Shown piece after piece: positions 14,182 through 33,545 of a stretch of DNA of 47,601 nt; position 1 is the stretch's first letter; every line of letters begins with the position of its first letter. Made by a program: the position numbers and the translations under genes. Under the pieces are notes generated by a model. It did no database searches. It was given only the letters and a program-made list of their open reading frames with translations, and was not told where the DNA came from. The stretch comes from a virus: IMG/VR virus record IMGVR_UViG_3300025326_000063. The stretch is one strand, 5' to 3'.

Positions 14182-14251
14182 AGTCTTGAGTCTTGAGTCT
14201 TGGGTCTTGAGTCTTGGGTCTTGAGTCTTGGGTCTTGGGTCTTGGGTCTTG
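14182..14251. repeat. Heptanucleotide microsatellite (R)GTCTTG x10 filling the terL-portal intergenic gap
   Basis: Ten contiguous 7-bp units, AGTCTTG/GGTCTTG, in order A,A,A,G,A,G,A,G,G,G. Starts 3 nt after the terL stop and ends 2 nt before the portal ATG. Confidence 0.95.
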
Positions 14252-14253
14252 AT

Positions 14254-16942: not shown

Positions 16943-17278
16943 ATGCCAATGTATAGCTATTTATGTTCAGGTTGCGGCGAGAGTTTCGACGATGTTTCGC
17001 CTCAGAAGCAGAGGCATTTGAAGCGCAAATGCCCGCACTGCGGCGGATGGGGCAAAAGGGACGTAAAGTCCGAGCTTGCCAAGTCCGGCAGGTTCAACGC
17101 AATGATGAAGGACAATCCGAGGAAGTCATGCGCGCTGGGTATAAATCCGGCGCAGATAGACGATTTTCATAGGACGTGGCCCTGGATGCGATTTGACGAA
17201 CAGGGGAATTGCCTAATACAAAACAGACAGGAAAAATTGCGCGTTATGAAAGCCAGAGGGTATGACGAAATTGAGTAA
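16943..17278 (+). CDS. FmdB-like zinc-ribbon protein
   Basis: MPMYSYLCSGCGESF...KCPHCGG. Confidence 0.6.
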   Translation: MPMYSYLCSGCGESFDDVSPQKQRHLKRKCPHCGGWGKRDVKSELAKSGRFNAMMKDNPRKSCALGINPAQIDDFHRTWPWMRFDEQGNCLIQNRQEKLRVMKARGYDEIE

Positions 17279-17726
17279 GGACATTAGTTGGCTCTACGAA
17301 ACCAAGCGATGTAGTTGTTGCGAACAGGAAAAGCCGTTAGATTGCTTTGCGCGACAGAGTAACGCCCCAACGGGGCTAAAATACGTTTGCCGAGAGTGCG
17401 ACAACAAAAAGGGGCGTGATTATTACCGGGAGACTAAGGTAATATGGAAAGAAAAGTACAAAAAGAAACACCGCAAATCAATGCTGAAACATCACTATGG
17501 GATAACACCCGAACAGTATAACGCAATGTATGAAAGGCAGGGTGGTTGTTGCGCTATTTGCGGAAGGCATCAAAGTAAGTTTGCGAGAAGATTAACAGTT
17601 GACCACTGCCACGGAACTGGAAAGATTAGGGCGTTACTTTGTGGGAATTGCAATAATGGTTTGGGTTGTTATAAAGATGATCCTGAGCTTTTAATTAAAG
17701 CATACCAGTATTTACAAAAGTATTGA
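17262..17726 (+). CDS. Recombination endonuclease VII-family homing endonuclease with an N-terminal zinc-ribbon module
   Basis: LTVDHCHGTGKIRALLCGNCNNGLGCYKDD is the Endo VII signature. N-terminus is CSCC...PLDCF...GLKYVCRECD. Confidence 0.85.
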   Translation: MTKLSKDISWLYETKRCSCCEQEKPLDCFARQSNAPTGLKYVCRECDNKKGRDYYRETKVIWKEKYKKKHRKSMLKHHYGITPEQYNAMYERQGGCCAICGRHQSKFARRLTVDHCHGTGKIRALLCGNCNNGLGCYKDDPELLIKAYQYLQKY

Positions 17727-25133: not shown

Positions 25134-26045
25134 ATGAGAATGCCCATCGAAGCGTCGTGTATTCAAATCATTGTGAATAACGTCTGCGAGCACGATTGTT
25201 GCCACTGCTCACAGCTTATCGGCCATCAGGGTAATCATTACCAAATGACGCTGGACTATTGTGAGCAAGCGCTTGTTTCCTTGCAAGGCCATCCAGGGAG
25301 CGTCGGCTTCTTCGGGGGCAATTCGTTACTGCATCCGCAATTTCCCGAATTGTGCGAATTGCTGCGCAAGTATCGGCCAGTAAAGGCCCGCAGGGAACTA
25401 TGGTGCAGTGGAGCGAACTACGACAAATACAAAGAGATAATTGATGAGACTTTCTATCCTGAATTGGTGGCCTACAATGATCACAAAGACGGCCAGGACT
25501 GCTGGCATCAGCCGGTGTTGATAGCGCCTAATGAGGTTTTTGAAGATAAGGAATTGATGTGGCGGGTGATAGACAATTGCTGGGTGAACCTTAGATGGTC
25601 TGCCGCCGTTACTCCGCTTGGCGCCTTTTTCTGCGAGATAGCCTCGGCGATAGCGTGGCTGCTGAAAGAGAGTATTGGCATACCCGTTAAGCCGGGCTGG
25701 TGGCGGGAAGAGGAAAGTGATTGGTACTTTCAGCGAGGAACTATTTGCCCCTTATGCTCCGCCTGCCTGCCTATGCCGATGGTGGCCAACGATAAACAGG
25801 ACTACGACGATATATCGGCGGGTAACTTGGATAGGATTATCGGTGTTTCGCCGAGATGTATTAAGGGTAAGTACAAGATTTTCAATACGGACAATCTTAG
25901 GGACTATTACAAGGGCCACACCTTCGAGCCGGAGACCGAATTCGAGAAGCGGGGCTGGTTCAAAGACTTTCCATTTTGGAAACCGAACAGATATAGAAAT
26001 GTGGTGCGCCATTCGCCCGATGATAAAGACAATTCCAAAGACTAA
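25134..26045 (+). CDS. Radical-SAM-like protein
   Basis: NNVCEHDCCHC matches CX3CX2C. FFGGNSLLHP resembles GGEPLLHP. Confidence 0.55.
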   Translation: MRMPIEASCIQIIVNNVCEHDCCHCSQLIGHQGNHYQMTLDYCEQALVSLQGHPGSVGFFGGNSLLHPQFPELCELLRKYRPVKARRELWCSGANYDKYKEIIDETFYPELVAYNDHKDGQDCWHQPVLIAPNEVFEDKELMWRVIDNCWVNLRWSAAVTPLGAFFCEIASAIAWLLKESIGIPVKPGWWREEESDWYFQRGTICPLCSACLPMPMVANDKQDYDDISAGNLDRIIGVSPRCIKGKYKIFNTDNLRDYYKGHTFEPETEFEKRGWFKDFPFWKPNRYRNVVRHSPDDKDNSKD

Positions 26046-26202
26046 GATATGTAAGGGATGTTACAGAAATTTACCTTTACAAAAGTTTTCTAAGCAAAAG
26101 AGTGGAAAGTATGGGTATCACTCTCGGTGTAAGGAATGTATAAGTGAAGAAAACTGCATATATAAACAGAGACCAGAGGTAAGAGAAAGAATAGAGAGGT
26201 AG
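26020..26202 (+). CDS. Stand-alone zinc-ribbon module homologous to the N-termini of the Endo VII/HNH genes (homing-endonuclease remnant?)
   Basis: MIKTIPKTKICKGCYRNLPLQKFSKQKSGKYGYHSRCKECISEEN. This is the last 60 codons of track ORF 25675-26202. Confidence 0.5.
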   Translation: MIKTIPKTKICKGCYRNLPLQKFSKQKSGKYGYHSRCKECISEENCIYKQRPEVRERIER

Positions 26203-26208
26203 TGAAGC

Positions 26209-26394
26209 ATGCGCCGCAAACCGAAACAAAGTGATTCTCGTTTAGCCGCTTACGACGCCGAATTTCGGGCGGCGACGAATATGGCTCTCGATTACTGGTC
26301 GTTCATGGCCGCCCCCGAACAGGTGGATGAGCGACGAAAAGCGATGGAAACAAGAGAGTTGGCGAGGTTAAAAAACTGCTTTGAGACCACATAG
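26209..26394 (+). CDS. Small hypothetical protein, paralog A
   Basis: Ends ...AMETRELARLKNCFETT, sharing a 59-bp identical 3' end with the next ORF. Confidence 0.4.
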   Translation: MRRKPKQSDSRLAAYDAEFRAATNMALDYWSFMAAPEQVDERRKAMETRELARLKNCFETT

Positions 26395-26629
26395 AAAATG
26401 GCCGGACAATGACGTGTAAAGAAACTGCGAAACAATGCTTGGCGGACGCCACATGGCCGCCCCCGAACAGGTTGCCGATGCAAATTTATTACAGGGGCGT
26501 TCCTATCGAGGAATTTGATAAAGAAGACCTTATTAAAATTGTTGCCTTATGCCTGGAGCAATTAAAGTGCATGGAAACAAGAGAGTTGGCGAGGTTAAAA
26601 AACTGCTTTGAGACCACATAGAAAATGGC
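26344..26629 (+). repeat. Pair of 59-bp perfect direct repeats (26344-26402 and 26571-26629), plus a 20-bp repeat
   Basis: ATGGAAACAAGAGAGTTGGCGAGGTTAAAAAACTGCTTTGAGACCACATAGAAAATGGC occurs twice, 227 bp apart. ATGGCCGCCCCCGAACAGGT also occurs twice (about 26304 and 26454). Confidence 0.9.
26409..26621 (+). CDS. Small hypothetical protein, paralog B
   Basis: Ends ...CMETRELARLKNCFETT. Confidence 0.4.
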   Translation: MTCKETAKQCLADATWPPPNRLPMQIYYRGVPIEEFDKEDLIKIVALCLEQLKCMETRELARLKNCFETT

Positions 26630-27507
26630 ATCTTGTAATTCTTGACCGACTAATCACTGCGTTCCTCTTTTGTTGGTACAGTGTTGCGGACAAGGTGCGC
26701 CTGCGCCTTGCCCGCAGGCATTATGAATATCAATACTACCCGGAGAACGCACCGAAACATTTTAAGGCGACTCCGCTTGTCTCTATTATAATGCCCACGA
26801 TAGGACGGAACGCGACTGAGGCGATAGATTCCGTTCTTGCGCAGACTCATAAGAATTGGGAATTGATAATTGTGGGCGACGGCGCGCCACCGTATCCGGC
26901 GTCTAATATCGGCGACGGTAGGATTAAATGGTATTGGATCGAAAAGGTTCGTCACTACCCCGACCATCCGTTTTATCAATGGCTTTCCGGGCCGTGTAGG
27001 GCGATAAACTACGGGCTATCCAGGTTGCGGGGGGATTGGATAGCCCGAATTGACGACGACGATGTCTGGCATCCGAGACATCTTGAATGGGCGCTGGAAG
27101 CGGCGACTAAATATGATTATGAGTTCGTATCGTTTCCCATTGACTTAAATGGCCGACAGCCAATACCGGACGTTCATTGCGGGCAAGCCGTTGGCGCAGT
27201 TCAGTCGTGGCTGTATCGCGGTTATCTGAGATACTTTGAGACGAATCTTCATTGCTGGCGCAAAAGGCGGAACGCGGTGAACGATATAGACCTTTCGGAG
27301 CGAATGGCGCGGGCCGGTGTGAAAATAACGTTTATTTGCGGGTCTGACACGGAGTCGCACGCGATTATTAAGCCGAGACTGGGCCTAACGGAAGTAGGAA
27401 TTAAGGGATGGTTGCAAGAGGGAGAGCAAAATGCGCGGGGGCAAGAGTTTTCTGGCGGTGATACCGGCCAGGGGCGGCAGCAAGGGAATCCCGAACAAGA
27501 ACGTTAA
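26608..27507 (+). CDS. Family-2 glycosyltransferase with a hydrophobic N-terminal segment
   Basis: VSIIMPTIGRN..AIDSVLAQTHKNWELIIVGDG. ARIDDDDVWHPRHLE is the DxD motif. The start is uncertain (TTG 26608 or GTG 26695). Confidence 0.8.
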   Translation: MRPHRKWHLVILDRLITAFLFCWYSVADKVRLRLARRHYEYQYYPENAPKHFKATPLVSIIMPTIGRNATEAIDSVLAQTHKNWELIIVGDGAPPYPASNIGDGRIKWYWIEKVRHYPDHPFYQWLSGPCRAINYGLSRLRGDWIARIDDDDVWHPRHLEWALEAATKYDYEFVSFPIDLNGRQPIPDVHCGQAVGAVQSWLYRGYLRYFETNLHCWRKRRNAVNDIDLSERMARAGVKITFICGSDTESHAIIKPRLGLTEVGIKGWLQEGEQNARGQEFSGGDTGQGRQQGNPEQER

Positions 27508-28204
27508 GGACTTTTGCGGCAAGCCGCTAATTCAGTGGTCTATCGAGGCCGCAAAAGATAGCGGCGTATTCGACCGGATAATAGTCAACAGTGATTCCGA
27601 TAAGATACTGGCCGTGGCCGCTAAGTGCGGCGCGGACGTTCAGCCGCGACCTGCTGAATTGGCTTCGGACACGTCGCTGGTGGCGGACGTTATGGTGAAT
27701 TCACTGCTTAGGCTCGGCGAAAAGTATGATTACGTTCAGTTGATTCAGGCTACGAGTCCTGGGCTAAGACCCGCACAGATACAGGGTGCGGCGAGAATGA
27801 TTCAGGGCCAGCCGCCGTTTGAGAATTGGAAAGATAGAAACGCCGATATGGTTGTCGGGGTTCACAAGTATAAAGACCCGACGATAGTAGTCAAGGAGCT
27901 GCCGAATGATTTATGTTTGAAGGGTTGGTATCCTAAGCAGTTTAAGGACAAGAACAGGCAGGACTTACCGCCCGCGTACCGGATAAACGGGTACATCTAC
28001 CTTGCCAAGTGGGATGTCTGGGTGAACCGCAAAGACTATTGGAAAACGAACGTTTACGCCTATATCTGTGATGAGCACGATGATATTGACATTGATACCA
28101 AATGGGATTGGGACGTTGCCGAGGCCCGATTCCGGGCGGCGGGCAAACATAGACTTTCGAGGTGGGAAATATGCAAAAGATTGCTAAAGAGGCTGGCAAG
28201 TTAA
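27431..28204 (+). CDS. neuA: CMP-nonulosonic acid synthetase (acylneuraminate cytidylyltransferase; NeuA/LegF/PseF family)
   Basis: LAVIPARGGSKGIPNKN...GKPLIQWSIEAA...LIQATSPGLR. Confidence 0.85.
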   Translation: MRGGKSFLAVIPARGGSKGIPNKNVKDFCGKPLIQWSIEAAKDSGVFDRIIVNSDSDKILAVAAKCGADVQPRPAELASDTSLVADVMVNSLLRLGEKYDYVQLIQATSPGLRPAQIQGAARMIQGQPPFENWKDRNADMVVGVHKYKDPTIVVKELPNDLCLKGWYPKQFKDKNRQDLPPAYRINGYIYLAKWDVWVNRKDYWKTNVYAYICDEHDDIDIDTKWDWDVAEARFRAAGKHRLSRWEICKRLLKRLAS

Positions 28205-29145
28205 GCAGTTTTGCCGGCATTTATCGCAAGTGCAATTCCGGCACAATGGCGGACAAGCTGGCGAATCCAATAGACTTCCCTCGCCTGATAGATATTGAAT
28301 TGACTAATCAGTGTAATCTTCATTGTGCTATGTGCCCGACTGGGCAGGGCATAGTCAAGAGGCCGAAAGGATTGATGTCCGCCAATTTGTTTGGGTTGAT
28401 TCTCAAGGAGGCTGCCAAGTACGGTGCGGCTTTGCGGTTTGTTCGGTGGGGGGAGCCATTCATACATCCGCAGTGCCTGGCCTTCTGTAAACTGGCGCGG
28501 CAAGTGAACGTGCCCGTCTGGATAAATACCAACGGGACGCTAATCGACGACGAGGCCATTGACCGGATAATCCACTTGAGATACGGCCCATCGACTATCA
28601 AGTTTTCCTTTCAGGGTGTTACTGCTGAGCAGTACAAAAAGTGGCGAGGAGAGGATAATTTCGAGAAGTTGTTTGAGACTGTCGGTGAAATATACAAAAA
28701 AAGGGGAGCGTTCAGGATGCCGTTCATACAGATAGGGAGTACGATAACCGATGAAAGTACAGCAAATGAAGTGGCGGAGTTTCGGCATTTTGCTGAAAAA
28801 ATCGCCGACAAAGTTGAAATTAGCCGAACAAAGAAAATTGGATTCGACCCTTGCTCGATGGCGGAAAACTGTCCTGAAATCTTTGATAAAATGTCTATCA
28901 ACTGGGACGGGACGGTAGTTGCCTGCTGTGCGGACTATGATAACGAGATGGTGGTCGGTGATTTGGCCAAGAGCAGTCTCAAGAATATCTGGGATTTCGG
29001 CCCGGAGTTAAGGGAAATACGAGCCGATTTAGCGGCTGGCCGGTGGAATAAGTATAGGCTATGCGGAGGGAACTGTTATGATGCGGGGAATAGTAAGGCC
29101 GACGAAGGCCAGGCTAAAGGCGTTTTTCAGTCAAGCGCAAAATGA
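28171..29145 (+). CDS. Radical-SAM enzyme with a SPASM/twitch-like C-terminal Cys cluster
   Basis: ELTNQCNLHCAMCPTG matches CX3CX2C. C-terminus has CPEIF...DGTVVACCADYD...LCGGNC. Confidence 0.75.
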   Translation: MQKIAKEAGKLSSFAGIYRKCNSGTMADKLANPIDFPRLIDIELTNQCNLHCAMCPTGQGIVKRPKGLMSANLFGLILKEAAKYGAALRFVRWGEPFIHPQCLAFCKLARQVNVPVWINTNGTLIDDEAIDRIIHLRYGPSTIKFSFQGVTAEQYKKWRGEDNFEKLFETVGEIYKKRGAFRMPFIQIGSTITDESTANEVAEFRHFAEKIADKVEISRTKKIGFDPCSMAENCPEIFDKMSINWDGTVVACCADYDNEMVVGDLAKSSLKNIWDFGPELREIRADLAAGRWNKYRLCGGNCYDAGNSKADEGQAKGVFQSSAK

Positions 29146-29500
29146 ACGGTTCTTGAAGAACCCGCCGGTTTACCGGCAGGGTACGTGCGACGTGCACTAT
29201 ATCCTTTTGGGCTACGGGCATCCGGTAATTGCCTACGGGTGGATTCGCGGATGGGACGAGAATTGGCCCGATAAATGCCTGGGTCTTCTCGTCCACCCCG
29301 AATGTCGGGGACGGGGTTATGGCGAGTTGACGTGCCGGTTCTTATTGCAGGCGGGCAAGGAACGGAATCTGGCTCGCGTGCGCCTGCACGTTGACCCCAA
29401 GAACGAGTTGGCTCTGAGTTTATATAAGAAGGTAGGTTTTGCTTTCGACGGTGCAAAAAGAGCGGACGGTGAGATGATAGGATTTTACTGTTATGAGTAA
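29078..29500 (+). CDS. GNAT-family N-acetyltransferase (PseH/LegH-like role possible)
   Basis: LLVHPECRGRGYGELTCRFLL is the acetyl-CoA motif R/QxxGxG. 140 aa. Confidence 0.7.
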   Translation: MMRGIVRPTKARLKAFFSQAQNERFLKNPPVYRQGTCDVHYILLGYGHPVIAYGWIRGWDENWPDKCLGLLVHPECRGRGYGELTCRFLLQAGKERNLARVRLHVDPKNELALSLYKKVGFAFDGAKRADGEMIGFYCYE

Positions 29501-29675
29501 TAAAGAATTGATAGATAGTTTGCGAGTAGCGCTTAAAAACACGAAATTTCGTCCCCCCGTAGCGTCAGGCGCGAAAATTGAGATTGACCGCCGGAAGATT
29601 AAGAAGGGTTCTTTTCCAAACTATGAGCGCGTACATAATAGCCGAAGCGGGTCTCGAAGCGAATGGCAGCACTAG
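29493..29675 (+). CDS. Doubtful small ORF between the GNAT and NeuB-like genes
   Basis: ATG overlaps the GNAT stop. The last third overlaps the NeuB-like start. Confidence 0.25.
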   Translation: MSNKELIDSLRVALKNTKFRPPVASGAKIEIDRRKIKKGSFPNYERVHNSRSGSRSEWQH

Positions 29676-30405
29676 TGCGGCTGCGCAGTTAATTTTTGCC
29701 GCGTCTTTCTCCGGTGCGGACTGCGTGAAGTTCCAGCTTTACAGCGAGGAGACCGCGAATAAGGTCGGCGGCCGTTTGCCCGCGTGCCGGTTGGACGTGG
29801 GGCAGTTTGAATATCTCAGAAAGTACACGGCCAAGTGTAATGGTATTGAATTTCTCTTATCTGCTTTTGATATGGAGAGTCTAAAACAGTGCAAACTATT
29901 GGGTTGTAAAGCCGTGAAGATACCATCCGTCTGCAACGAGAATTGGGATATGCTGCAATATGCGGATGACCATTTTGACGTCATATACGTCTCGTCGGGC
30001 TTGGCGGGGCTTATTGGCGTTCCAGCCAAGTGCCTAACCTTGCTTTGCACCTCTGTCTATCCCTGCCCGTTTGAGCAGGTGAATTTAAGGGCGATAACGA
30101 ACTATGACGGCCTTTCCGATCATACGATAGGCTGGGAAGTGCCCATAGCGGCGGTTGCCATGGGCGCGATGATTATCGAAAAACACTTGACAATATCTCG
30201 TAGCACCGACGGCCCGGACGCCTGCTGCGCCCTTGAGCCGATGGAATTTGCCGATATGGTCTATCGTATCAGAAACGTCGAAAAGGCTATGGGCGACGGT
30301 ATTAAGAAAATCGAGCCAGGGGAGATGGGATTACTCTGGCGGAAACAACTGGGGTGCACGAGACTTGAAGATGAGGAGTATGCCGAATGGCGAAAATCAC
30401 TTTAG
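29623..30405 (+). CDS. neuB: Nonulosonic acid synthase (NeuB/LegI/PseI family), TIM-barrel domain only
   Basis: MSAYIIAEAGLEANG...GADCVKFQ...GLSDHTIGWEVPIAAVAMGAMIIEKHLT. 260 aa, with no C-terminal SAF domain. Confidence 0.8.
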   Translation: MSAYIIAEAGLEANGSTSAAAQLIFAASFSGADCVKFQLYSEETANKVGGRLPACRLDVGQFEYLRKYTAKCNGIEFLLSAFDMESLKQCKLLGCKAVKIPSVCNENWDMLQYADDHFDVIYVSSGLAGLIGVPAKCLTLLCTSVYPCPFEQVNLRAITNYDGLSDHTIGWEVPIAAVAMGAMIIEKHLTISRSTDGPDACCALEPMEFADMVYRIRNVEKAMGDGIKKIEPGEMGLLWRKQLGCTRLEDEEYAEWRKSL

Positions 30406-31364
30406 TGGCAGGTAGTCGTTCCGACTACGGACTCTTAGAGCCGCTTTTGGAATGGTTGCAAGACCATAATTGCGGCGGGGGGGATACGAACACCCTAATT
30501 CAGCTTTTCGGAGCTTCTACGGCCTCTGGGTGGCCTTCTCGATGCTTCCGGGGGGCAAGTCTAAGGGTTGTGGAATGTTTCACGGATTCCGATAGTCCTG
30601 AAGGGGTCTGCGCCTCTATGGGACTGGTTTGTATGAAACTGCCACAGATATTGAAAGAAGGCGCTTATGAAAAAGTTATCGTTCTGGGCGACCGTTATGA
30701 AATACTTAGTGTGGCTTGTTGTGCTTATACTCTTGGCATACCTATTTCTCATATCGAGGGCAGCGATACGACTTTAGGCTCGCTGGACAACGGATACCGA
30801 GCGGCCATAAGGTCTTTGGCCGCCGAGCATTACGACGTGGAGGAATACGGGTCTTTGGGTTGTGTATTCCCGCCCGACGGCAATGGCCAACACTATCCGG
30901 CTCTGGTTGTGTTGATTTATCATTCGCACAAAGGCGACTGGGAAAGCGAATTGCGGGCTATTCTTGATGCTGTTAAACCTTATCGAACAGCAGCTTTTGG
31001 GTCGAATAAAGATGCAGACGGCAGAAAAATAAATCGGATTCTTAAAGAAAATGGAATTATTCCTCTTGACAATCTACCGCGTATGCAATATATTAACATA
31101 CTCAGAGACGCGGATTTCATTATCGGCAACAGCAGCAGTGGAATCATAGAAAGTGCTTCTCTTCACATTCCCGCTATAAATGTTGGGGATAGACAAAAAG
31201 GCAGAATGAGAGCCAAAAGCGTTATCCAAGCCGACGGAAGTGTGGAGAGTATTAAGCAAGCGATAGAAAAAATCAAAGACTTGCAAGACTTTGATTTTGA
31301 GAATCCGTATTTTAGACCTAATATTGTGGAGCGCATAGGCAAAGGGATTCTGGGTTATGCCTGA
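30387..31364 (+). CDS. neuC: UDP-N-acetylhexosamine 2-epimerase, hydrolysing type (NeuC/LegG family)
   Basis: KITLVAGSRSDYGLLEPLL...VLGDRYEILSVA...PISHIEGSDTT.G..D...R. Confidence 0.75.
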   Translation: MAKITLVAGSRSDYGLLEPLLEWLQDHNCGGGDTNTLIQLFGASTASGWPSRCFRGASLRVVECFTDSDSPEGVCASMGLVCMKLPQILKEGAYEKVIVLGDRYEILSVACCAYTLGIPISHIEGSDTTLGSLDNGYRAAIRSLAAEHYDVEEYGSLGCVFPPDGNGQHYPALVVLIYHSHKGDWESELRAILDAVKPYRTAAFGSNKDADGRKINRILKENGIIPLDNLPRMQYINILRDADFIIGNSSSGIIESASLHIPAINVGDRQKGRMRAKSVIQADGSVESIKQAIEKIKDLQDFDFENPYFRPNIVERIGKGILGYA

Positions 31365-31581
31365 GACAAAGATTTGCTCCAAGTGTCATAAAAAGCAACC
31401 CATTACTTCATTTCCGAAACGGCCCAATAGGAAAGCCGGATTACACGGCCACTGTTACGAGTGCCGTAGAAAATCAACACATAATTGGTATTTGCGGAAT
31501 AAGCAGCTGTGTGGACATTGTAACGCTTGTTTGGCTTGGTATGAGAACAAAAGAGTAATCGTAGAAAATTACTTACGGTAG
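31357..31581 (+). CDS. Stand-alone zinc-ribbon module (homing-endonuclease N-terminal domain homolog)
   Basis: MPETKICSKCHKKQPITSFPKRPNRKAGLHGHCYECRRKS. Overlaps the neuC stop by 8 nt. Confidence 0.5.
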   Translation: MPETKICSKCHKKQPITSFPKRPNRKAGLHGHCYECRRKSTHNWYLRNKQLCGHCNACLAWYENKRVIVENYLR

Positions 31582-31613
31582 AGAGGATCGGAAAAGGGAT
31601 TTTGGGCCGCTGA
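31578..31613 (+). pseudogene. Recoded duplicate of the last 10 codons of the NeuC-like gene
   Basis: GTAGAGAGGATCGGAAAAGGGATTTTGGGCCGCTGA translates to VERIGKGILGR*. The neuC end at 31326-31364 is VERIGKGILGYA*. Differences are almost all synonymous. Confidence 0.55.
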
Positions 31614-31657
31614 AAAGCGGAGGGATATACGACTTCATCGTTTCCCCTTTTTCAAAG

Positions 31658-31694
31658 CGCAAGTAGTGGTGCGCACTGCTACTTGCGTCTTATT
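31658..31694 (+). terminator. Hairpin (weak terminator or processing site) at the end of the glycan island
   Basis: CGCAAGTAG (31658-31666) pairs with CTACTTGCG (31679-31687), followed by TCTTATT. Confidence 0.35.
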
Positions 31695-31711
31695 AAAACG
31701 CGGAGAGAAAA

Positions 31712-32458
31712 ATGCCAAGTTTGCAACTTTCATTTTCGGAGCTTTACAACGCCGTTTCAAAGTACGCCGGCACGTATGGCTCGTCCGGCGTATCCGGTAC
31801 GGACCTTACCGACGCTAAGGATATGGTAAACGCGGCGTACCGAAGACTTCTTCTTAGCCATAATTGGACTTTCTTAACGCCTACCCGCCAGATTTCGACG
31901 GTGTCCGGCACGTGGCAATATGAGTTGCCCGCCGACTTTGTACGGATAAAGAGCACGTTCAGGTACTCGTCCGCCGACGCCTACCCGCCCCTGCGGGAGC
32001 GAATGTATGAGCAGATAGAGGAGTTTCGCGCCGTTACCGATACTACGGGTTATCCGACTTATTTTGCTCTTGTTGCAGGCGAGCACGCGTCCGAAACGGG
32101 TCAGAAATGGATAGTTACGTTCTTTCCTACTCCTGATGCCGCTTATACCCTTTACTATTCTCCTGAGATTTGGCCCGCAAAGATGGTGAACGACAGTGAT
32201 TTGCACATCGGCGGCCCGGACGTTTCGGAGGCTTTGAAAGAATTGGCAATCGCTCAGGCCGAAGCCGAATTGGACGAGCTTGCGCCTGACCAGTCCGTTC
32301 ACGAGAAGAAGGCCAGTGGCCTGCTTATGCAGGCGGTAATGAAGGACAACGAGCGGAGGGCGCATAATTTAGGCTATAACAACGACGAGAATATGGGCGG
32401 GGTAATTGATATAACTCGCGAATACAGGTTAAATGAAGTGAATATGGTTGACTTCTAA
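31712..32458 (+). CDS. Virion structural protein (head-tail adaptor/connector candidate)
   Basis: 248-aa ORF, the first gene after the island, with GGAGAGAAAA upstream. The call rests on position only. Confidence 0.45.
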   Translation: MPSLQLSFSELYNAVSKYAGTYGSSGVSGTDLTDAKDMVNAAYRRLLLSHNWTFLTPTRQISTVSGTWQYELPADFVRIKSTFRYSSADAYPPLRERMYEQIEEFRAVTDTTGYPTYFALVAGEHASETGQKWIVTFFPTPDAAYTLYYSPEIWPAKMVNDSDLHIGGPDVSEALKELAIAQAEAELDELAPDQSVHEKKASGLLMQAVMKDNERRAHNLGYNNDENMGGVIDITREYRLNEVNMVDF

Positions 32459-32469
32459 GGAGTTTTCAA

Positions 32470-32751
32470 ATGTCGAAAGGTAATTTAGCAGAGGAAATGG
32501 GCGGAATGATTCCGGGCTACGCCGCGAGTTCCGCGTTGAAGGTCATTTATCAGACTGAGAACGGTGTTGTGCTGGGTATATGCAGTCTGACGGCCTTTAC
32601 TGCGCTGACCGTCGGCGCGGATGCGGGCACTTACGTCTTTGCGCCAAACTGTCTGATAATGTCCATTAACAGCGTAGCGGCCAATTCGGTGCGCCTGGTC
32701 TGGAATACTGGTATTGGCACTGCGCCCATTTTCACCGGCTTGGTGAGTTAA
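32470..32751 (+). CDS. Small virion-module protein
   Basis: 93 aa with AAGGAG upstream. Confidence 0.5.
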   Translation: MSKGNLAEEMGGMIPGYAASSALKVIYQTENGVVLGICSLTAFTALTVGADAGTYVFAPNCLIMSINSVAANSVRLVWNTGIGTAPIFTGLVS

Positions 32752-32761
32752 GGAGGGTACC

Positions 32762-33076
32762 GTGGCGGACGAACACAAATATTGGAATACGACCAGGGAT
32801 ACCGTTTCTAAACAGTGGGGGGTAGTGGTTATCTCCACTGACGCCGCCGCTTACGTTTCAAGCCAGCCGTGTAAGGAATGTTGGATTAAAACAAAAGCGG
32901 GCAGCAGCGTCTATGTAACCTTCGATACTACGGCTACCGCGACTAACGGATTCCCCCTAACCGCGAACAGCTCGATGAATATGGCGGAAATTGGGCCCCT
33001 GCCCATAAGTAACCTAAGCATAATTAACCTCTTTCCTGTGGCTCTTTGTACCGTGTACATTCTTTGGCGCGCATGA
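32762..33076 (+). CDS. Small virion-module protein
   Basis: 104 aa. GTG start 4-5 nt after AAGGAGGG. Confidence 0.45.
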   Translation: MADEHKYWNTTRDTVSKQWGVVVISTDAAAYVSSQPCKECWIKTKAGSSVYVTFDTTATATNGFPLTANSSMNMAEIGPLPISNLSIINLFPVALCTVYILWRA

Positions 33077-33077
33077 G

Positions 33078-33545
33078 TTAGACAGCGTTTCGATGACATT
33101 TGCGGCAAAGAGGAATGACGTTAAGAAGATTGATTTTATCATATCCGCGCCAATGATGGTAGTCCATTGCCTGTGCGTGGCAATCGAAACATCGTAAGGT
33201 TTTAGCCGGAGGTATTTTGTGAGTGGCTATAGCACGCATAACTGCATTTCGGGCGCGTCCTATTTGGGGAGTATAATTTTTGTGCCAGTAGTGGCGCGCT
33301 GTTTCCAAGCCTTTTTGGCTATGTCTGTAGCGGTGCGCCGCTTCCAAGCCTTTTTTGCTATGACTGTAGCGGCGGACGTTTTCGTAGACAATTTTTTTGC
33401 CCTGCGCAGTTTGCCTGTAGGTAGCCACCGAAGCATTAGCGCATCGTTTACACCAGCTTTTATAACCTGATGGGCGGTCTTTTTGAATATAAAATTCGGA
33501 CAATGATTTGATTGTGTGGCAATGAGTACAAGTTCGTTTTTGCAT
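33078..33545 (-). CDS. HNH homing endonuclease with an N-terminal zinc-ribbon module (the only reverse-strand gene in the late region)
   Basis: CTHCHTIKSLSEFYIQKDRPSGYKSWCKRC, then HHWRGYDKINLLNVIPLCRKCH. Contains an internal 39-bp tandem duplication (about 33303-33380) encoding SHSKKGLEAAHRY / RHSQKGLETARHY. Confidence 0.8.
   Translation of the reverse strand: MQKRTCTHCHTIKSLSEFYIQKDRPSGYKSWCKRCANASVATYRQTAQGKKIVYENVRRYSHSKKGLEAAHRYRHSQKGLETARHYWHKNYTPQIGRARNAVMRAIATHKIPPAKTLRCFDCHAQAMDYHHWRGYDKINLLNVIPLCRKCHRNAV

Follow-up and report, generated by a model that had tools for sequence, protein, structure and literature searches.

How does a phage gene come to have two ends, spelled in different codons and placed on either side of a small open reading frame (ORF)? 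This question is raised by the 3' end of the neuC gene in the IMG/VR virus record IMGVR_UViG_3300025326_000063, whose full stretch of 47,601 nucleotides (nt) is called the window throughout this text. The initial annotation had described the duplicated and recoded gene end around a zinc-ribbon ORF, here named ORF74, and had taken it for a decayed homing-endonuclease insertion. Our analysis supports such an insertion, which was found to extend beyond the 12 recoded codons noticed at the outset and to cover about 77 neuC codons from ~31133 onward together with ORF74. With a probability of roughly 0.8, a cassette made up of an endonuclease gene, now decayed, and the foreign last ~77 codons of neuC was copied into the gene and displaced its original last 13 codons.

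Two ends of neuC flank a small ORF

The features at the locus are the following:
30387-31364, + strand: NeuC (UDP-GlcNAc 2-epimerase family, 325 amino acids (aa)), Pfam PF02350 with E 9e-35
31326-31364, + strand: upstream, translated neuC end, VERIGKGILGYA and stop, GTG GAG CGC ATA GGC AAA GGG ATT CTG GGT TAT GCC TGA
31357-31581, + strand: ORF74 (74 aa), zinc ribbon (residues 1-~47) and probable Endo VII C-terminal remnant (~50-74)
31575-31613, + strand: displaced ancestral neuC end, TVERIGKGILGR and stop, 34/39 nt identical to the neuC end of the relative L001

The neuC product belongs to the Epimerase_2 family (PF02350), with a score of 120.6 bits at a gathering cut-off of 30.6. Downstream of its translated end, positions 31578-31613 read GTA GAG AGG ATC GGA AAA GGG ATT TTG GGC CGC TGA, which spells VERIGKGILGR before the stop. 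Both copies stand in the neuC frame at an offset of 252 nt, equal to 84 codons. They share ten residues, for which 23 of the 30 nt are identical, and the 7 differing bases, located in 6 codons, are all synonymous. The sequences therefore read as the initial annotation had claimed, with ten residues kept and 7 synonymous changes, except that the homology to the ancestral end begins one codon earlier, at 31575 (ACG for Thr; compare the T-VERIG of relatives). Over these 39 nt the upstream and the downstream copy are identical at 24 positions.

A chance match of the two ends was considered and rejected. The probability of ten random codons spelling the peptide, multiplied by 95,202 positions, was 7.7e-8, and 1.5e-3 coincidences of a 10-mer were expected in an all-against-all comparison of the window. 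The codon match on which the initial annotation was built is thus not due to chance. The shared peptide also stands apart within the window: every other 10-residue peptide that recurs there goes along with a nucleotide-level repeat.

The downstream copy (31575-31613), termed the stub in the following, lies in the neuC frame, but it is separated from neuC by stops (found in the frame-0 translation upstream of it) and has no start codon. As judged from its reading frame, it is now untranslated. The locus consequently presents an apparently endonuclease-derived ORF flanked by two ends of one gene, the proximal one being in phase and terminating neuC, which is the arrangement of the gene hybrids formed by mobile endonuclease ORFs (mORFs), discussed below.

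A relative without ORF74 points to the downstream copy as the ancestral end

The sole relative with DNA covering the site was a contig found in IMG/VR (L001) and again, as the same contig, in the JGI data (L004). Its NeuC is 73% identical to that of the window. The L001 gene ends in TVERIGKGILNR and a stop, using the codons GTA GAG AGG ATC GGG AAA GGG ATT TTG and hence the spelling of the downstream copy, and the homologous spacer (GCGGAGGGATA...) comes immediately after it, with the adaptor gene next. ORF74 is missing, so that L001 represents a cassette-less allele. The L001 neuC end was found identical to the downstream copy at 34/39 nt and to the upstream copy at 22/39 nt. Using blastn, L001 2445-3169 aligned with window 30408-31132 (80.6%) and L001 3354-4828 with window 31575-33054 (84.3%), the latter alignment beginning exactly at the stub, while no blastn alignment to L001 was obtained between the two flanks (window 31133-31574). 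The recombination junction proposed by the initial annotation was thereby recovered, with L001-like sequence resuming abruptly at 31575.

All 5 close NeuC homologues retrieved from a collection of 5.8 billion proteins end in VERIGKG[IV]L[GN]R. One of them, P0005, agrees with the window NeuC at every one of roughly the first 125 residues, as read from the sequences, yet has the ancestral-type C-terminus. The initial annotation had suggested a comparison of syntenic islands to find out which end is ancestral, and here the answer was consistent: neuC of L001 runs straight into the homologue of 31575-31613 with the same spacer and adaptor gene behind it, and the five close homologues concur. As L001 lacks ORF74 and ends in the codons of the downstream copy, we therefore regard 31575-31613, on comparative grounds, as the original neuC end. 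Exact-pattern scans of IMG/VR found the ancestral spelling only in L001 and the recoded spelling nowhere. Scans with the adaptor protein returned only the same contig (L001 = L004) from IMG/VR and the JGI metagenomes and nothing from the GTDB genomes.

The foreign tract covers the last ~77 codons of neuC and ORF74

Codon-by-codon comparison with L001 delimited two further features:
31107-31132, + strand: left identity block, 26 nt, perfect versus L001, encoding DADFIIGNS
~31133-31574, + strand: foreign tract, 442 nt, divergent neuC 3' part and endonuclease remnant, in place of 184 nt in L001 (3170-3353)

The codons of neuC are nearly identical to those of L001 through 31130, and from 31133 nearly every codon differs synonymously, with a sharp switch at 31131-31134. 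At identical residues the same codon was used in a fraction of 0.33 (31140-31364), compared to 0.71 in the preceding part of the gene (30387-31139) and 0.68 in the adaptor gene (Fisher p = 8e-6). Synonymous sites in the tract are thus at about saturation relative to L001. The GC content of the tract is 0.414 versus 0.504 for the genome, and in this it resembles other endonuclease genes of the window. The flanks are L001-like on both sides: neuC upstream of 31133 shows 79-84% nt identity at a same-codon fraction of 0.71, and the genes downstream of 31575 show 82-90% at 0.58-0.71. The left, homologous crossover probably took place in the identity block 31107-31132. On the right, the tract breaks off abruptly at 31574/31575, which is 13 codons ahead of the stop of the ancestral gene.

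The same break was visible in the protein. Over residues 1-248, NeuC shares 68-82% identity with the close homologues P0002-P0006 and 41% with the distant phage NeuCs P0007-P0010. For residues 249-313 the respective values are 54-57% and 51-62%. This part is no closer to the native clade than to the distant NeuCs; the affinity to the clade is thus lost in the tract. Taken together, neuC reads as a hybrid, with codons 1-248 being native, i.e. clade-typical, and codons ~249-325 plus the stop foreign. The upstream end 31326-31364 would accordingly have arrived with the cassette. By its reading frame, neuC remains whole, as a gene end and stop codon of different spelling come with the cassette.

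A patch inside the native part of neuC (30870-31049) also showed lower identity to L001 (nt 0.63, same-codon 0.50), and P0005 differs from all others there. It may represent a variable loop or the tract of another, older exchange.

ORF74 resembles an endonuclease VII that lost its catalytic core

The start codon of ORF74 overlaps the neuC stop by 8 nt (ATGCCTGA), and the ORF is read in a different frame from neuC. Its four ribbon cysteines are kept (CxxC...CxxC). As reference for its architecture we used the intact Endo VII-type paralogue of the window (17262-17726). BLASTP gave two colinear matches between the two proteins, of residues 1-51 to 11-61 (E 2e-8) and of residues 51-72 to 126-148 (E 0.008), with a gap of 64 residues between them relative to the paralogue. 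ORF74 also matched the PHROG endonuclease VII family phrog_1035 (E 2.9e-10), while Pfam PF02945 gave no match at E<=10. The last ~25 residues (QLCGHCNACLAWYENKRVIVENYLR) resemble the C-terminal end of the Endo VII domain. Against a hidden Markov model (HMM) of that domain built from 24 members, this tail, which lies outside the catalytic core, scored 10.9 bits, a value reached by 1 of 5000 shuffles. A weaker reading, in which the tail is a truncated second zinc ribbon, scored 5.7 bits, reached by 96/5000 shuffles; the catalytic residues are absent either way.

Today's ORF74 does not have the DHxH...R core of a site-specific endonuclease. The catalytic D, H, H and R are missing, and only the CxxCN segment (N56) is present. 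As the core is missing, ORF74 is most likely a decayed Endo VII-type homing endonuclease from which the catalytic core was deleted in frame. The initial annotation had noted the zinc ribbon in common with the Endo VII (17262-17726) and HNH (33078-33545) genes of the window and the lack of a nuclease domain. Both observations held, the second with the refinement that the last ~25 Endo VII residues were likely retained, which points to an internal deletion. ORF74 takes its last two codons and its TAG stop from the ancestral neuC sequence, in which GTA GAG becomes G TAG AG. With the end borrowed in this way, the junction thus falls only a few codons from where the endonuclease gene would naturally end.

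The search for full-length homologues, likewise proposed by the initial annotation, had a mixed outcome. A word-based protein search gave no homologue of ORF74, and an exhaustive phmmer search against 1.84 billion representatives returned, besides the ORF itself, only distant ones. Among its 723 matches the distant ones (30-45% identity) were all obtained via the zinc ribbon, which often occurs there in several tandem copies. In many of the fetched sequences the ribbon is fused to Endo VII (DHxH...RGxLCxxCN) or HNH domains. The sole 100% match, P0121, is a catalogue protein of 153 aa (window 31357-31818) in which ORF74 is read through TAG as Tyr into the spacer. It was rejected as a full-length relative or a case of stop-codon recoding, given that the long ORFs of the window are open under the standard code, and looks like a gene-calling artefact.

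A possible history of the locus

Based on the two boundaries and the codon usage, the following course of events can be proposed. An unsampled donor phage would have carried a free-standing Endo VII (His-Me finger) homing endonuclease gene directly 3' of its own, divergent neuC allele. The endonuclease would have cut the 3' end of the intact neuC near codon -13. The left DNA end may then have been resected by ~180 nt and have invaded the donor neuC, from where synthesis would have run through the end of the donor gene and the endonuclease gene. Finally, the product would have been joined to the right end of the break without homology, i.e. by one-sided, illegitimate double-strand-break repair. 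A left boundary within an identity block and a right boundary without homology are the pattern expected for this kind of repair. The ten identical residues with their scrambled third positions would reflect a long separate evolution of the two neuC lineages under purifying selection on the peptide, and not a duplication within this genome. Later, an internal deletion of ~60-65 codons, in frame, would have removed the catalytic core from the endonuclease gene, leaving ORF74 as at most a small zinc-ribbon DNA-binding protein that may be translationally coupled to neuC.

Several points weigh against this course of events. No donor was found, and the best non-self match to the foreign NeuC tract among the 5.8 billion proteins reached 63%. 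The last ten residues of the donor are those of the recipient clade, with the preceding 65 residues being only ~55% identical, and the terminal ten-residue peptide is not common to distant NeuCs. The donor lineage would therefore have to be an unsampled one that keeps the clade-specific terminal peptide, and a donor-like NeuC C-terminus with that peptide was not present in the databases searched. The site is covered by DNA from a single relative. The window itself is a single metagenome-assembled contig, from which both junctions are read. The Endo VII reading of the ORF74 tail is based on ~21 residues. Because neither a donor nor a close or full-length homologue of ORF74 was found, we infer the origin of the endonuclease and its original activity from the sequence. 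Assembly chimerism was also considered; a mis-join was judged unable to create the non-homologous right junction.

Alternative explanations

The two copies could in principle have been brought together from the other direction, with the upstream end and ORF74 being native and the block from 31575 onward imported from an L001-like phage, its left end joined illegitimately 13 codons before the end of the donor neuC. The right junction would be identical in both models, and mosaicism is common in the lineage, P0005 and the patch 30870-31049 both looking mosaic. We nevertheless consider this direction improbable. The part of neuC upstream of 31133 is as L001-like as the genes past 31575, which makes the 442-nt tract the odd one out; the low GC content is limited to that tract; and two separate exchanges would be required instead of one insertion. 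Clade-typical flanks of similar divergence on both sides hence favour a single insertion over the import of the downstream block. Even less credit is due to a local tandem duplication of the neuC end, followed by divergence and by the insertion of unrelated DNA between the copies. It would account for the common frame and the distance of exactly 84 codons, but the stub is untranslated, and seven all-synonymous changes cannot accumulate under selection after such a duplication. Moreover, the divergence reaches 65 codons 5' of the repeat into non-duplicated sequence, and it is the stub which keeps the codons of the relatives (34/39), not the translated copy (22/39).

Integrative elements that carry a replacement gene end, such as phage 21 and e14 in icd, leave a similar duplicate, and an integrase-borne element restoring the 3' end of its target gene was therefore weighed together with a self-splicing intron and an intein. 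Hardly any probability remains for these. No integrase is encoded, ORF74 being the sole ORF of >=60 codons that starts in the 442-nt insert; no Rfam family, introns of groups I and II included, matched in 30800-32000 at E<=1; and as neuC terminates at a stop of its own ahead of ORF74, whose frame is a different one, there would be nothing to splice. The last alternative accepts the insertion history and differs in function: ORF74 could be a domesticated, nuclease-free DNA-binding protein under selection, serving in regulation or in shielding the former target site from related endonucleases. We grant this a minor chance. The intact frame, the four conserved cysteines, the 8-nt start/stop overlap with neuC, as in translational coupling, and the presence of a second nuclease-free zinc-ribbon ORF at 26023-26199 speak for it. 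A precedent is CapR, a domesticated nuclease-less relative of phage endonucleases (Netter et al. 2021, as referenced in PMC10448857). However, no homologue with the short ORF74 architecture was found that would show conservation, and the C-terminus, fused into ancestral neuC sequence with a borrowed stop, looks accidental.

Comparison with known systems

With the insertion of an endonuclease cassette as the preferred explanation, the closest known parallel would be the mORF gene hybrid of fungal mitochondria, in which a foreign C-terminus in phase is followed by an endonuclease ORF and the displaced native C-terminus, the native copy being closer to relatives (PMC3630166). Reported cases comprise atp6 of Allomyces macrogynus and atp6, atp9, cox2 and nad3 of Glomus sp. 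(PMC3630166; Paquin et al. 1994 as cited there). The neuC locus has this same architecture, consisting of native gene body, in-phase foreign C-terminal part, endonuclease ORF and displaced native C-terminus. Likewise the native stub is closer to relatives (34/39 versus 22/39 nt here, 91-98% versus 64-81% in Glomus), the protein is conserved between the copies, and an ORF-less allele exists in a close relative. In contrast, the host is a bacteriophage and not an organelle, and the endonuclease belongs to the Endo VII/His-Me type with a zinc ribbon instead of LAGLIDADG or GIY-YIG. Furthermore, it overlaps neuC as an ORF of its own instead of being fused to it in frame, its core is lost, and the stub comprises only 13 codons.

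In phage T4, homing of the one-sided kind, with junctions formed illegitimately, has been demonstrated by experiment (Parker, Belisle and Belfort 1999, summarised in PMC2988022). According to that summary, homology was available on one side only, the other junction was formed at no homology or microhomology, and an endonuclease-bearing segment was gained at an ectopic or partly homologous site, all of which resembles the neuC locus. The T4 work summarised there employed an engineered laboratory system with intron-encoded enzymes, whereas here a natural product would be deduced from sequence. Free-standing homing endonucleases (Seg, Mob) of T4-like and ICP1 phages carry out intronless homing with co-conversion of flanking markers (PMC2988022, PMC10448857), and phage endonuclease genes sit at recombination boundaries (PMC10448857). 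As in these phages, the gene lies between phage genes, its presence is polymorphic among relatives, flanks were co-converted (here 77 neuC codons), and the window holds several such genes that L001 lacks. Classical intronless homing differs in being a clean replacement that leaves no duplicate of the end of the target gene.

The ancestor of ORF74 most likely belonged to the DHHRN/Endo VII-motif family, defined by the D, H, H, R and N of the His-Me finger and including F-CphI of cyanophage S-PM2 (PMC6083498). ORF74 keeps the LCxxCN...YL C-terminal segment and shares its layout with the intact Endo VII paralogue of the window, but without the catalytic D, H, H and R it would not be an active member.

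Taken alone, the case corresponds to the expected behaviour of this class of selfish element; its kind and footprint are already known from organelles and the repair mechanism from T4. No description of the footprint in phages was found in the full-text literature searched, an absence that is not proof. What makes the locus instructive is that the empty site, both junctions, the displaced gene end and the decayed endonuclease of a natural homing-endonuclease invasion would be visible together. It would show how a hybrid gene can be created in a phage without gene destruction, here in a gene for a nonulosonic-acid (sialic-acid-like) sugar pathway, and would catch a late stage of the life cycle, with the nuclease decayed and the hybrid host gene intact. 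The stub may give a simple sequence mark by which ancestral target sites and boundaries of recombination can be located computationally in uncultured phages. Two such footprints were found in this genome, one at the 3' end of neuC and one at the 5' end of the gene at 5496 beside an intact HNH-AP2 gene. We only tentatively put forward that cassettes with a spare gene end are a general, so far undescribed way by which free-standing homing endonucleases invade phage gene ends non-lethally. If this were true, stubs would reveal, from sequence alone, where ancestral cleavage sites lay and in which direction genes flowed. ORF74, with its nuclease dead, might be kept as a DNA binder with a regulatory or site-protecting role.

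Other endonuclease genes and remnants in the window

Three further genes of the window carry the zinc ribbon:
17262-17726, + strand: intact Endo VII-type paralogue, zinc ribbon and PF02945 (E 1.9e-24), phrog_2633 (E 3e-39)
26023-26199: stand-alone zinc-ribbon ORF after the radical-SAM gene (25134-26045), phrog_2340 (E 4e-8), GC 0.34
33078-33545, - strand: HNH endonuclease with the same zinc ribbon, phrog_2340 (E 5e-15)

The ORF at 26023-26199 is probably another endonuclease remnant. The HNH gene represents a clean intergenic insertion of ~520 extra nt compared to L001 (4850-4852) with no flanking duplication; at this site in L001 the stop of a gene for a 104-aa protein and the start of the next gene adjoin. 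The ORF74 cassette and the HNH gene are both missing in L001, which puts the difference between the two phages at two endonuclease insertions or more.

At 4765-5570, an intact HNH-AP2 gene (4890/5010-5483) is located between a 39-codon ORF (4766-4884) and the gene for a 263-aa protein at 5496. The 39-codon ORF and the 263-aa gene share AKAAGYSD(D/E)DA, the spelling of which differs at 9 of 33 bases, 8 of them synonymous. By its arrangement, this region appears to be the 5'-end counterpart of the neuC footprint. No relative covering 4765-5570 was found.

Genome context and the sugar island

The first and last 127 bp of the window form an exact direct repeat (1-127 = 47475-47601), and the window is therefore considered a complete, circularly assembled phage genome of ~47.5 kb (about 47,474 bp) derived from a metagenome. 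The junction is found at the 3' margin of a sugar-pathway island in which, according to the Pfam scan, NeuC comes last, after these genes:
27431-28204: cytidylyltransferase
28162-29145: radical-SAM/SPASM protein
29078-29500: GNAT acetyltransferase
29578-30405: NeuB

On the other side of the junction the following features are found:
31657-31688, + strand: strong predicted spacer hairpin between the stub and the adaptor gene, RNA fold of 31600-31712 at -39.9 kcal/mol, z = -3.5
31712-32458, + strand: SU10-type adaptor gene, Pfam PF24175 (E 4e-16), 85% protein identity to L001

The adaptor gene is the first of the L001-like structural block 3' of the junction and is followed by tail genes. The modelled hairpin may act as a terminator or mark an operon boundary; it was not called by a simple terminator scan. 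For neuC, the adaptor gene and the whole region, no DNA or protein match was obtained in 50,697 GenBank phage records.

Additional differences and repeats were observed in and around the island. A 78-codon ORF located between neuB and neuC in L001 (2191-2427) is missing from the window at 30323-30408, an indel of ~180 nt and another mosaic difference of the island. An exact direct repeat of ~60 nt (26343-26402 and 26570-26629, 227 nt apart) extends from upstream of a GT2 glycosyltransferase gene into its start and gives rise to two small ORFs sharing the end METRELARLKNCFETT before the stop. A second short repeat near the GT2 gene (MAAPEQV) occupies 26304-26324 and 26452-26472. Elsewhere in the genome, a short tandem repeat was found at the start of a gene for a 607-aa protein (14192-14252), with peptides repeated in several frames (e.g. 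LESWVLS, KTQD[SP]R).

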